Assembly (NCBI RefSeq): GCF_003790525.1
Contig: NZ_CP033635.1
Origin: Escherichia coli
GTDB taxonomy: Bacteria; Pseudomonadota; Gammaproteobacteria; Enterobacterales; Enterobacteriaceae
Strand: one strand, 5' to 3'
DNA: 64,000 nt
Shown: in pieces, positions 5,762-45,452 of the stretch
Numbering within the stretch: position 1 is the first letter of the stretch
How the letters are laid out: the number at the start of each line of letters is the position of its first letter
The notes under the pieces: generated by a model
The model's database searches: none
Seen by the model: only the letters and a program-made list of their open reading frames with translations
Told to the model about the DNA's origin: nothing
Program-made: the position numbers and the translations under genes

Positions 5762-6170
5762 TCCAGGTGGGTAGTTGGGTTTCATCTTGCCATGCGCAGT
5801 CGACAATGTGAAAACCCTGCGCATGGTAAAAATCTATCGCCGGTTGATTTTTTTGATAAACCTCCAGCATCAGATGGGGATGGCGCTGCTGCACATACTG
5901 CATTAGCGCCTTACCAATACCGCGTCTGACGGCCTTCGGTGCGACAAACATTGCAGCCAGAAACCGGCCTTCCATAATGCTGACAAAACCGAGAAGCTTA
6001 CCGTCTTCTTCCCAGACCCAGTTTTGCGCGTTGGCAAGATAGGCATCCCGCACCAGCGGAATGCAATCACGCCAGTAATTCGCTTTTATAAAGGGATGCC
6101 CCCAGGTTGTACTTTCCAGCCACAGTTCGAGGATCGCGGGGAGTTCTGAACGTTGCGCTTCCCGAATCAT
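5730..6170 (-). CDS. yiaC: GNAT family N-acetyltransferase YiaC
   Basis: 146-aa ORF; GNAT acetyl-CoA-binding motif (RRGIGKALM); 3' end overlaps bisC 3' end convergently. Confidence 0.92.
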
Positions 6171-6730
6171 GGTTTATTTCCCGGATAGCAACAGCAGCCA
6201 ACCACATGATCATTCACCAGCCCACATGCCTGCATAAAGGAGTAACAGATTGTGGTACCAACAAACTTAAAACCACGCTTTTTCAGGGCTTTAGATAGAG
6301 CGTCGGAGGCGGGCGTAGATGTAGGGATTTCGCTCAACGTTGTGGCTTGTGTCACCTGTGGTTGATGATTGACAAACGACCAGACAAAGTCGGCAAACGG
6401 TTCGCCGTTCTGTTCCATTTGCAGGTACGCCCGCGCATTACCAATAATTGCCTGAATTTTCCCGCGATGGCGGATAATCCCGGCGTCCTGTACCAGTCTT
6501 TCGACATCCTCTTCCTGCATTGCTGCCACCTTCACCGGATCGAACTGATGAAAGCTGGCGCGATAGTTTTCGCGTTTTTTGAGGACGGTGATCCACGATA
6601 ATCCAGCCTGCTGCCCTTCCAGGCAGATCATTTCGAACAGTTTTTTACTGTCAGTTTCAGGCACGCCCCATTCATTATCATGGTAGGCAATATAAAGCGG
6701 ATCCTGACTCACCCAGCCGCAACGTTCCAT
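6167..6730 (-). CDS. tag: DNA-3-methyladenine glycosylase I
   Basis: Track ORF 6167-6967 (266 aa) trimmed to MERCGWVSQDPLY start at 6730, giving 187 aa as in Tag; 4-bp overlap with yiaC start. Confidence 0.92.
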   Translation of the reverse strand: MERCGWVSQDPLYIAYHDNEWGVPETDSKKLFEMICLEGQQAGLSWITVLKKRENYRASFHQFDPVKVAAMQEEDVERLVQDAGIIRHRGKIQAIIGNARAYLQMEQNGEPFADFVWSFVNHQPQVTQATTLSEIPTSTPASDALSKALKKRGFKFVGTTICYSFMQACGLVNDHVVGCCCYPGNKP

Positions 6731-6881
6731 ACTTTCCCTCGCTATGTACCCGATCGTAAAAATTTCAGCCGCTTTTCTTGACGCATCGGTGAAAAAGTCA
6801 ATATTTAATACAGGGCTACTATGCCCGATATCCTTCATACAATGACAATAATATTGCCGAATTCGGCTCTTCCCTGGAGTC

Positions 6882-7586
6882 GTGTTAATGATCATAAAAA
6901 AAAGCGGTGGTCGCTGGCAGCTAAGCCTGCTGGTGAGCGTGGTAATCAGTGCCTTTTTTCTCAACACAGCTTACGCCTGGCAACAAGAATATATCGTTGA
7001 TACGCAACCCGGACATTCCACAGAGCGTTACACCTGGGATAGCGATCATCAACCTGATTACAACGATATTTTGTCGCAACGTATTCAAAGTAGCCAAAGG
7101 GCGCTGGGACTGGAAGTCAATCTGGCGGAAGAAACCCCTGTGGATGTCACCAGTAGTATGAGTATGGGGTGGAATTTTCCTTTATATCAACAGGTTACAA
7201 CCGGTCCGGTCGCGGCATTACATTACGATGGCACAACCACCTCGATGTATAACGAGTTTGGCGACAGTACTACCACGCTGACCGATCCGTTATGGCATGC
7301 CAGCGTGAGTACTTTAGGCTGGCGTGTTGACTCCCGGCTTGGCGATCTCCGACCCTGGGCGCAAATCAGCTATAACCAGCAATTTGGCGAGAATATCTGG
7401 AAGGCGCAATCAGGCCTGAGCCGGATGACGGCGACAAACCAGAACGGCAACTGGCTGGATGTCACCGTAGGCGCTGATATGTTGCTCAATCAAAATATTG
7501 CTGCCTATGCGGCGCTATCTCAGGCAGAAAATACCACTAACAATAGCGACTATCTGTATACGATGGGGGTTAGTGCCAGATTTTAA
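6882..7586 (+). CDS. yhjY: YhjY, autotransporter beta-barrel-like outer membrane protein without recognisable passenger domain
   Basis: 234-aa ORF; N-terminal signal peptide; C-terminus ends in aromatic F (…GVSARF), typical of outer-membrane beta-barrels. Confidence 0.85.
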   Translation: MLMIIKKSGGRWQLSLLVSVVISAFFLNTAYAWQQEYIVDTQPGHSTERYTWDSDHQPDYNDILSQRIQSSQRALGLEVNLAEETPVDVTSSMSMGWNFPLYQQVTTGPVAALHYDGTTTSMYNEFGDSTTTLTDPLWHASVSTLGWRVDSRLGDLRPWAQISYNQQFGENIWKAQSGLSRMTATNQNGNWLDVTVGADMLLNQNIAAYAALSQAENTTNNSDYLYTMGVSARF

Positions 7587-7814: not shown

Positions 7815-9023
7815 ATGACACCTTCAAATTATCAGCGTACTCGCTGGCTGACACTCATCGGTACTATCATTACCCAGTTTGCTCTGGGGTCGGTTTATAC
7901 CTGGAGTCTGTTTAACGGTGCGCTTTCTGCCAAGCTGGGGGCTCCTGTAAGCCAGGTTGCTTTCTCTTTCGGCTTGTTAAGTCTGGGGCTGGCAATTTCA
8001 TCTTCTGTTGCGGGCAAATTGCAGGAACGTTTTGGTGTTAAACGCGTCACTATGGCTTCCGGCATTTTGCTGGGATTAGGTTTCTTCCTGACAGCACATT
8101 CCAACAACCTGATGATGCTGTGGTTAAGCGCCGGTGTGTTGGTTGGTCTGGCGGATGGTGCGGGTTACCTGTTGACGCTCTCTAACTGCGTGAAGTGGTT
8201 TCCGGAGCGTAAGGGACTTATCTCTGCTTTTGCTATCGGTTCTTATGGTCTGGGCAGCCTGGGTTTTAAATTTATCGACACGCACCTGCTCGAAACGGTG
8301 GGTCTGGAAAAAACCTTTGTTATTTGGGGCGCGATTGTACTGGTGATGATTGTCTTTGGCGCAACGTTAATGAAAGATGCGCCGAAGCAGGAAGTGAAAA
8401 CCAGCAATGGTGTGGTGGAGAAGGACTACACCCTGGCAGAGTCGATGCGTAAACCGCAGTACTGGATGTTAGCGGTTATGTTCCTGACTGCGTGCATGAG
8501 TGGTCTGTATGTGATTGGTGTAGCGAAAGATATCGCTCAAAGTCTGGCGCATCTTGATGCAATTTCCGCAGCCAATGCTGTGACGGTTATTTCCATCGCC
8601 AACCTTTCTGGTCGTCTGGTGCTGGGCATTCTGTCTGACAAAATCGCCCGTATCCGTGTTATCACCATTGGTCAGGTGATATCGCTGGTGGGTATGGCGG
8701 CCCTGCTGTTTGCACCATTGAATGCAGTGACGTTCTTTGCAGCGATTGCCTGCGTGGCGTTTAACTTTGGCGGCACTATCACGGTGTTCCCGTCACTGGT
8801 CAGTGAGTTCTTCGGCCTCAATAACCTGGCGAAAAACTACGGTGTGATTTATCTCGGTTTCGGTATCGGCAGCATTTGTGGGTCGATTATCGCCTCACTG
8901 TTTGGCGGCTTCTATGTGACTTTCTACGTCATTTTTGCCCTGCTGATTCTGTCTCTGGCGCTTTCAACGACCATTCGCCAGCCAGAGCAGAAAGTATTGC
9001 GTGAAGCGCATGGCTCCCTTTAA
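7815..9023 (+). CDS. yhjX: MFS transporter YhjX (oxalate/formate antiporter-like, pyruvate-inducible)
   Basis: Track ORF 7770-9023 trimmed to MTPSNYQRTRW start (402 aa); multiple TM helices. Confidence 0.92.
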   Translation: MTPSNYQRTRWLTLIGTIITQFALGSVYTWSLFNGALSAKLGAPVSQVAFSFGLLSLGLAISSSVAGKLQERFGVKRVTMASGILLGLGFFLTAHSNNLMMLWLSAGVLVGLADGAGYLLTLSNCVKWFPERKGLISAFAIGSYGLGSLGFKFIDTHLLETVGLEKTFVIWGAIVLVMIVFGATLMKDAPKQEVKTSNGVVEKDYTLAESMRKPQYWMLAVMFLTACMSGLYVIGVAKDIAQSLAHLDAISAANAVTVISIANLSGRLVLGILSDKIARIRVITIGQVISLVGMAALLFAPLNAVTFFAAIACVAFNFGGTITVFPSLVSEFFGLNNLAKNYGVIYLGFGIGSICGSIIASLFGGFYVTFYVIFALLILSLALSTTIRQPEQKVLREAHGSL

Positions 9024-44522: not shown

Positions 44523-45452
44523 TTACGCAGGCATCGCTTCACGCGGGATAATCGCGCCGCGATACTGAATAACGGTACTTGCGGTCAGGTGCCCGCGTTT
44601 CGCTGCGTCTTCCGCACTGCCGCCCGTCAAACGTACCGCCAGATAACCGGCACTGAAAGAGTCGCCAGCTGCGGTGGTATCGATCACTTTTTCTTTCGGC
44701 AGTTTTACCGCCGGAACATCCACTAACCCTTCGCCAGCAATGGACACCAGGCAAGAATCCGCCCCGCGTTTCACCACCACTTCTTTCACGCCCGCGTTAT
44801 GGGTGCGCGCAATGACGTCTTCCACCGGCTGTTGACCCCACAGCGCGTCTTCATCGTCCAGCGTCAGGAAGGCGATATCCGTGCATTCCAGCATTTGTTG
44901 GTACACCTGCTGTGTCTCTTCTTTGCTGGCCCACAGGCGCGGACGATAGTTATTGTCGAAAATCACTTTTCCGCCGTTGGCGCGGCATTCGCGCAGCAGG
45001 GAAAGCAGCTTTTCGCGGCTGGTCGGGCTTAAGATCGCCAGGCTAATCCCGCTCAGGTAGAGATAATCGAAATTCGCCAGCTCTTCACAAATCGCCGCGG
45101 ATTGCTCACTCTCCAGCCAGAATTTGGCGGCGGCTTCGTTACGCCAGTAGTAGAACGTACGTTCGCCGGTGCTGTCGGTTTCAATGTAGTAAAGGCCCGG
45201 CAGACGGTTTTCCATCCGTTGGGTCAGGGAAGTATCAACGTTCTCGCCGTGCCAGGCGTCCAGCATCTGCTGGCTAAAACTGTCCGTTCCCAGCGCCGTT
45301 ACGTAATGAACGGTTAATGCCGCAGGATCGACCTGACGGGCGATATAGACGGAAGTGTTCAGGGTATCGCCGCCGAAACCGCGCTTAACGTCCGCGCCTT
45401 TCTCGGAAAGCTCAATCATGCATTCGCCAATCACGGCAATCTTTTTGGACAT
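44523..45452 (-). CDS. kdgK: 2-dehydro-3-deoxygluconokinase
   Basis: Track ORF 44523-45800 trimmed to MSKKIAVIGECMIEL start at 45452 (309 aa); PfkB sugar-kinase family. Confidence 0.94.
   Translation of the reverse strand: MSKKIAVIGECMIELSEKGADVKRGFGGDTLNTSVYIARQVDPAALTVHYVTALGTDSFSQQMLDAWHGENVDTSLTQRMENRLPGLYYIETDSTGERTFYYWRNEAAAKFWLESEQSAAICEELANFDYLYLSGISLAILSPTSREKLLSLLRECRANGGKVIFDNNYRPRLWASKEETQQVYQQMLECTDIAFLTLDDEDALWGQQPVEDVIARTHNAGVKEVVVKRGADSCLVSIAGEGLVDVPAVKLPKEKVIDTTAAGDSFSAGYLAVRLTGGSAEDAAKRGHLTASTVIQYRGAIIPREAMPA

Follow-up and report, generated by a model that had tools for sequence, protein, structure and literature searches.

What kind of protein can end like the translocator of an autotransporter and leave no room for a passenger? 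This question is raised by yhjY, a gene within the 64,000-nucleotide stretch of Escherichia coli DNA analysed here (the window), the product of which had been predicted to be an autotransporter-type β-barrel lacking a passenger domain, either as the remnant of an autotransporter or as a stand-alone barrel. That it resembles such a barrel is already known, "autotransporter β-barrel domain-containing protein" being the standard annotation and [quoted passage not shown] the RefSeq product name. In our reading, which we hold to be probable, YhjY is a small outer-membrane β-sheet protein that represents an internally deleted lipase autotransporter of the EstA/ApeE type, and that is maintained in a non-enzymatic capacity.

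The yhjY gene and its expression signals

The annotation used is that of RefSeq for SMS-3-5 (NC_010498.1), which is 100% identical over the 1,301 bases around yhjY. The features of the gene and its upstream region are the following.

6167–6730, minus strand: tag, encoding 3-methyladenine DNA glycosylase I (annotation); conserved divergent neighbour and positional marker of the locus
6731–6887: divergent intergenic region between tag and yhjY, 157 bp (annotation)
6778–6805, plus strand: candidate sigma-70-like match (consensus scan; four such matches against 2.5 expected)
6888–7586, plus strand: yhjY coding sequence, 232 codons plus stop (RefSeq annotation)
6900–6911, plus strand: 12-nt complement of the RybB 5' end within codons 5–8, pairing with RybB nucleotides 1–12 with two G·U pairs

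The open reading frame originally predicted is real, but its start has to be moved. In the list of open reading frames the maximal frame (6882–7586, plus strand) begins with a GTG two codons upstream of the annotated ATG and encodes 234 amino acids, compared with the 232 of RefSeq. The ATG at 6888 is favoured as the start, since a GGAG at 6876–6879 is located 8 nt from it and just 2 nt from the GTG at 6882, since 77 of the 81 orthologues have an ATG at the aligned position, and since the alignment of 20 orthologues begins there. The divergent arrangement with tag is as predicted, with tag on the minus strand and yhjY on the plus strand, separated by the 157-bp gap, whereas the overlap that had been claimed for the two genes is an artefact of a mechanical reading frame (6167–6967; GTG, 266 aa) that runs past the annotated tag end at 6730. 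Downstream, yhjX (7815–9023, plus strand) follows after a gap of 228 bp, and a search for a terminator-like site between yhjY and yhjX found none. The current RefSeq name of yhjX is "L-lactate MFS transporter"; we take it to be better known as the pyruvate-inducible target of YpdAB.

Expression of yhjY is RpoS-dependent in EDL933 (PMC2907692) and is induced at the transition to stationary phase (PMC2241611). Furthermore, TRIC-seq revealed chimeras between yhjY and RybB, alongside those with ompA, ompC, ompW, fadL and bamA (bioRxiv 10.1101/2025.09.11.675593). The candidate seed site for RybB, a sigma-E-dependent small RNA whose sequence was verified with Rfam, fits this reported interaction. 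The seed-complement pattern occurs twice in the 64-kb window, against 0.8 occurrences expected; the second one (44773–44784, minus strand) is located ~130 nt inside the gene of a DUF3142-domain protein, away from the translation start, and is probably due to chance. The 7-nt core CAGTGGY is found at the same place in 41 of the 81 orthologues versus 0.5% of the other windows in the same genes, a contrast that is inflated by shared ancestry and by a conserved Ser-Gly. The core is kept while residues of the signal peptide vary. The energy of the duplex with RybB (26 nt) is unexceptional, being equalled by 35 of 500 shuffles and by 289 of 1,596 background windows.

Relationship to GDSL-lipase autotransporters

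The encoded protein can be divided into four segments and a terminal motif, to which the comparisons below refer.

Residues 1–30 (6888–6977, plus strand): putative Sec-type signal peptide (inspection of the sequence)
Residues 31–66 (6978–7085, plus strand): vestige of the lipase passenger N-terminus (BLASTP, hhalign, dN/dS, AlphaFold helix)
Residues 67–86 (7086–7145, plus strand): junction or linker segment, poorly conserved (dN/dS 0.256 for residues 71–88)
Residues 87–232 (7146–7583, plus strand): C-terminal part of an EstA-type autotransporter β-domain (PF03797, TIGR01414, hhalign, AaaA profile match)
Residues 224–232 (7557–7583, plus strand): C-terminal motif YTMGVSARF, fitting the pattern expected of a BAM β-signal

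When 1.8 billion representative proteins were searched exhaustively, two kinds of relatives emerged, many of ~210–240 amino acids and seven long ones of 658–703 amino acids, the latter matching YhjY in this search solely via their last ~150 residues. In all seven, a complete Lipase_GDSL domain precedes a complete Autotransporter domain, with β-domains spanning about 250–280 residues, and they belong to the GDSL-lipase autotransporters of the EstA/ApeE type. The closest long sequences are P0134 (Winslowiella-like, 665 aa) and P0157 (Pantoea ananatis, 658 aa), and the best of them, P0134, matches EstA (PDB 3KVN) with an E-value of 1e-34. One genome carries three tandem GDSL-lipase autotransporter genes (GCA_037996705.1; locus L090, 4001–10088), so this family grows by local duplication in some genomes.

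The comparison with longer homologues, which had been suggested together with the original prediction, revealed that both ends of YhjY are shared with these proteins. In BLASTP, residues 57–232 match residues 486–665 of P0134 (40% identity, E 8e-41) and residues 1–66 match residues 1–69 (E 4e-7), and in hhalign residues 91–232 correspond to 516–665 of the long forms (probability 99.8%, E 8e-30). The N-terminal match persists when the signal peptide is left out, residues 28–66 aligning to residues 29–69 of the long forms (probability 92%, E 6.5e-7, 44% identity), with AYAWQQEYIVDTQPGHS--TERYTWDSDHQPDYNDILSQRI of YhjY facing ASAWDQLYVFGDSLSDSGNNGRYTWDGSTHPLYDDILAEKI of P0134. A second hhalign match of the N-terminus, to lipase block V (325–365), was not significant (E 0.14) and was rejected. 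In terms of the SGNH-hydrolase fold, we read the vestige as strand 1, followed by the loop of block I and by helix 1. There is, as originally stated, no room for a passenger, because the mature protein has only ~202 residues, but the passenger is not entirely absent, since residues 28–66 are a recognisable vestige of it.

The catalytic apparatus is gone. Block I of the long forms, FGDSLSDSGN, aligns to IVDTQPGHS in YhjY, so that the GDS(L) motif with the catalytic serine is lost, and the YhjY orthologues have no conserved serine at the aligned position. Blocks II, III and V, which supply the Gly, the Asn and the Asp-x-x-His, lie within the deleted span, and YhjY has no match to PF00657 (Lipase_GDSL) in Pfam, whereas the long homologues match this family end to end. 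For these reasons "lipase" and "Lipase 1" are misnomers.

The arrangement of genes supports a common origin of the long and short forms. On a Winslowiella-like metagenome contig (L002), the order is a yiaD-like gene, tag (divergent), the gene of the 665-residue P0134, dnaT and dnaC. In Pantoea the order is identical, but a 236-residue protein of the YhjY type replaces the long gene; its residues 87–236 match 499–665 of P0134 (E 7e-44) and its residues 1–61 match 1–71 (E 0.002). YhjY thus occupies the place that a full-length lipase autotransporter has on the Winslowiella-like contig. Among the Enterobacteriaceae, each of the 80 loci from species-representative genomes has tag as the divergent neighbour of yhjY, and yhjX is present downstream in 75 of them. 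Of the remaining five loci, those of Salmonella enterica subsp. arizonae and diarizonae lack yhjX within the 4-kb flank downstream of yhjY, and three without a yhjX match are short or at a contig end. The downstream gene differs among Enterobacteriaceae, Salmonella and Erwiniaceae. An assembly labelled "Chryseobacterium sp. 18061" carries the Enterobacteriaceae tag–yhjY–yhjX locus with the same coordinates and the same identities to the E. coli genes as "Citrobacter sp. 18056" from the same study, from which it is judged to be probably mislabelled or contaminated.

Two-ended homology and positional equivalence together identify YhjY as an internal-deletion derivative, and at the level of sequence comparison its descent from a GDSL-lipase autotransporter is shown. 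Relative to P0134 it is without about residues 70 to 490 or 510, that is ~420–440 residues, which comprise most of the lipase domain (35–348, ~89% lost), the linker and, as suggested by the sequence pattern and the 12-stranded barrel of EstA-type proteins, presumably strands 1–5. In BLAST, the junction itself resembles the loop preceding strand 6 of P0134 only weakly. In the long gene of the Winslowiella-like contig (6001–7998), an 8-nt identity (GACGATAT) between the YDDI codons at residues 61–64 and 487–490 forms a direct repeat that flanks almost exactly the part missing from YhjY. As a deletion junction this microhomology was rejected: in YhjY, YNDI is followed by ILSQRI (family consensus ILAERI), a continuation that agrees with ILAEKI at the N-terminal site but differs from the barrel site, and the junction must therefore lie further downstream than the repeat.

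In a neighbour-joining tree of the last 150 residues, all short forms are monophyletic (95% bootstrap), with P0134 and the long form of P. ananatis as their sister group (97.5%). The tree speaks for the short form having arisen once, before Enterobacteriaceae and Erwiniaceae split, in which case the tag-linked long gene of Winslowiella is perhaps a re-conversion from a long paralogue; the alternative is a set of independent deletions combined with long-branch attraction. The long gene P0157 of P. ananatis and P0174 sit at loci other than tag, and when other lineages were searched for long forms linked to tag, none turned up; the contig of P0176 has only ~205 bp upstream, in which tag is not present, too short a stretch to be informative. 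The ancestral state of the locus is thus inferred from one lineage, the Winslowiella-like contig.

Predicted fold and maintenance of the shortened protein

The N-terminus of YhjY is, on inspection, a plausible signal peptide as had been claimed, with K4, K5 and R9 preceding a hydrophobic core (12–25) and A28-Y29-A30 preceding W31 (AYA|W), and with A30 invariant in 20 aligned orthologues. At the other end the open reading frame terminates in ...DYLYTMGVSARF, and the aromatic signature noted in the original prediction is borne out: the motif alternates hydrophobic residues (Y224, M226, V228, A230, F232) and has a phenylalanine in the last position, a pattern that is typical of outer-membrane barrel proteins. 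Y224, G227, V228, S229, A230 and F232 are invariant in the 20 orthologues, and F232 is also invariant in the family alignment of 69 rows. The putative signal peptide, the β-signal pattern and the targeting by RybB alongside the mRNAs of outer-membrane proteins would indirectly point to a location of YhjY in the outer membrane.

The predicted likeness to autotransporter barrels was found in profile searches, one of them against solved structures. Residues 90–211 match positions 119–253 of the 255 in PF03797 (E 9e-12), the match to TIGR01414 is confined to model positions 285–432 of 432, and both scores are above their thresholds; Pfam families other than PF03797 had no match. Against solved structures, a single-sequence phmmer search of the PDB returned nothing significant, and the profile of the YhjY family gave one match, to residues 499–663 of 663 of the autotransporter AaaA (9OQA, E 3e-12). 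However, these matches cover only the C-terminal 53–57% of the models, and of the β-domain about 55–60% is present, roughly the last seven of its twelve strands. The designation "autotransporter-type barrel" is thus partly right: the similarity is real, but the translocator domain is present only in part.

A first AlphaFold model of the full-length protein (38 sequences) was too poor to be used (pLDDT 56.5), and its Foldseek matches were meaningless. The second (pLDDT 68.7, pTM 0.62) was computed for the mature sequence from an alignment of 69 rows that included trimmed long homologues, which may bias it towards the curvature of a 12-stranded barrel. It comprises a helix (58–69), predicted in both models, and eight strands (74–79, 87–100, 103–115, 137–149, 154–168, 187–199, 204–215 and 220–230), of which the last seven lie within the autotransporter-homologous region. 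The short first strand, which is amphipathic, is contributed by the junction (7107–7124; residues 44–49 in mature numbering, in a 10-residue block with pLDDT 77) and could, if the model is right, serve as the eighth strand. Confidence is moderate overall and lowest for the edge strands and for residues 31–52. As modelled, the sheet resembles two-thirds of a 12-stranded barrel more closely than it does a tight one of eight strands, and a published I-TASSER model of YhjY is likewise a "broken barrel" (PMC7383365). Within residues 31–52 (6978–7043), Q32, Q33, E34, Y35, R47, Y48, W50 and D51 are invariant in the 20 orthologues, yet the AlphaFold model shows this segment as unstructured (pLDDT < 50). 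That it is conserved where no fold is predicted may point to a partner or to folding that depends on context.

How the sheet is completed separates our reading from its strongest rival. The sheet would most likely close into a small barrel made of the new strand 74–79 and the seven inherited strands. Alternatively, the eight strands may keep the ancestral 12-strand curvature and form an open partial barrel, for which a homo-oligomer (e.g. two times eight strands) or a partner at the edge strands would be needed. We regard this as unlikely, though it is the foremost competitor: the modelled curvature may have been imposed by the 12-stranded homologues in the AlphaFold alignment, and with a downstream neighbour that varies between Enterobacteriaceae, Salmonella and Erwiniaceae the locus offers no conserved partner gene. 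Moreover, such known multi-chain barrels as those of trimeric autotransporters and TolC are built from four strands per chain.

A second rival, that YhjY is an expressed but useless, pseudogene-like relic in the course of being lost, bears on the word "remnant" in the original prediction and is improbable. The reading frame is intact in all 81 Enterobacteriaceae species examined, which belong to many genera, with a near-constant length of 228–237 codons, and yhjY is present in 5,422 of 5,426 complete E. coli genomes. The ratio dN/dS, calculated by the Nei–Gojobori method and pooled over 166 pairs with 0.2 < dS < 1.0, is 0.126 for the whole gene, 0.115 for the vestige (31–70), 0.256 for the junction (71–88) and 0.084 for the barrel part, so that both halves lie in the range of 0.08–0.13; the value of 0.49 for the signal peptide indicates a weaker constraint there, which we take as typical of signal peptides. 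Together with the conserved seed site for RybB and the regulated expression, this argues against decay. In favour of a relic are the origin by a large deletion, an evolution two to three times faster than that of tag (dN/dS 0.068) and yhjX (dN/dS 0.037), the lack of a yhjY phenotype in the searchable literature, and the existence of shortened forms. The latter comprise truncated proteins of 146–185 residues, common in Shigella-type sequences (P0064, P0083, P0088 and P0106, from Shigella and E. coli), and family members of 193–214 residues in Klebsiella (P0313–P0326) and Cronobacter (P0288–P0301), whose aligned representatives, P0130 and P0133, have internal gaps in the barrel part. These forms suggest that some lineages are under a weaker constraint or none. 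Nevertheless, yhjY is a real, conserved gene and not a pseudogene, with purifying selection on both retained parts, so that "remnant" is correct in the sense of descent from an autotransporter but not in that of a decaying gene.

The other half of the original proposal, a complete stand-alone translocator barrel of twelve strands without passenger, is very improbable despite the above-threshold scores of PF03797 and TIGR01414 and the RefSeq name, since the mature protein falls short of the 250–280 residues of the long homologues' β-domains, the matches reach just the C-terminal 53–57% of the models, AlphaFold predicts eight strands, and residues 28–66 are homologous to the lipase passenger and not to barrel strands.

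The preferred reading, that of an internally deleted lipase autotransporter, can be outlined as follows. An internal deletion of ~420–440 residues in a classical GDSL-lipase autotransporter would have given rise to yhjY. Besides the signal peptide, the last seven strands and the β-signal, the product would retain the first ~36 lipase residues, in which the catalytic serine motif is destroyed, whereas ~89% of the lipase domain would have been removed together with strands 1–5 and with the linker helix that fills the pore. As a consequence, YhjY would neither hydrolyse lipids nor export a passenger. Following export by Sec, it would be inserted by BAM via the C-terminal motif, forming an eight-stranded sheet, and its conserved N-terminal segment would lie either towards the periplasm or within the barrel. 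Expression occurs in stationary phase under RpoS, with repression by RybB expected as for other outer-membrane protein mRNAs, and the most likely role would be a non-enzymatic one, structural or binding, in the stationary-phase envelope. A bolder version is possible but doubtful, in which a 12-stranded barrel, cut to seven or eight strands by a single internal deletion, has been selectively maintained, either re-closed or completed by several chains or a partner, while the vestige (31–66) has taken on the role of a plug or of a binding module in the periplasm.

Comparison with known systems

The link between YhjY and Lip1 of Photorhabdus has been published (PMC6637259). In the searchable literature on yhjY, P37663 and truncated GDSL autotransporters, no description was found of the origin by deletion, nor of the partial barrel (7/12), the remains of the passenger, the full-length counterpart at the tag locus or the selective constraint on yhjY. 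For annotation it follows that "Lipase", "Lipase 1" and "putative lipase" are wrong for the YhjY family, and that "autotransporter" is misleading, since there is nothing to be transported. YhjY is among the few outer-membrane proteins of E. coli K-12 that were not resolved by modelling; the presence of 7/12 of an EstA-type barrel would explain the "broken" models and points structural biologists to what to test. If the bolder version is true, it would document a route of strand-number change by deletion in a core E. coli gene, and a fragment that folds and functions would amount to a natural experiment on such change, with a bearing on barrel evolution, the rules for BAM substrates and barrel design. 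On its own the finding opens no major new question, but is useful for annotation and for the study of barrel folding and evolution.

The closest known systems are EstA of Pseudomonas aeruginosa (3KVN), ApeE of Salmonella and Lip1 of Photorhabdus, all of type Va. With this type YhjY shares the N-terminal Sec signal peptide, which is plausible by inspection, and the C-terminal aromatic β-signal with its invariant F232. Compared with these three proteins, YhjY is without ~420–440 internal residues, and thereby without the catalytic Ser, Gly, Asn and His blocks, the linker helix and strands 1–5, so that it can be neither an esterase nor a secretion device. Indeed, passenger homology is limited to ~36 residues of the mature protein; nothing in YhjY aligns to the stretch between the Lipase_GDSL and Autotransporter domains of P0134 (~349–385), in which a pore-occupying helix would be sought, the predicted helix 58–69 aligning instead to the passenger N-terminus; and the β-domain is not the full one of twelve strands, as seen from the partial PF03797 and TIGR01414 matches, the hhalign range of 516–665 and the AlphaFold model. 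YhjY is therefore best described as a degenerate derivative, having the properties neither of a functional autotransporter nor of a GDSL hydrolase. By comparison with autotransporter β-domains in general (PF03797; AaaA 9OQA, BrkA, Hbp, NalP, EspP and AIDA-I), it has eight predicted strands and not twelve. Small eight-stranded outer-membrane barrels are the other obvious point of reference, and one of them, PagP, has an N-terminal helix before its barrel. No sequence relationship of YhjY to OmpX, the N-domains of OmpA and OprF, NspA, Ail or PagP was detected, and the modelled structure appears less similar to these small barrels than to 12-stranded ones. Unlike them, YhjY would owe its size to a deletion from a 12-stranded barrel.
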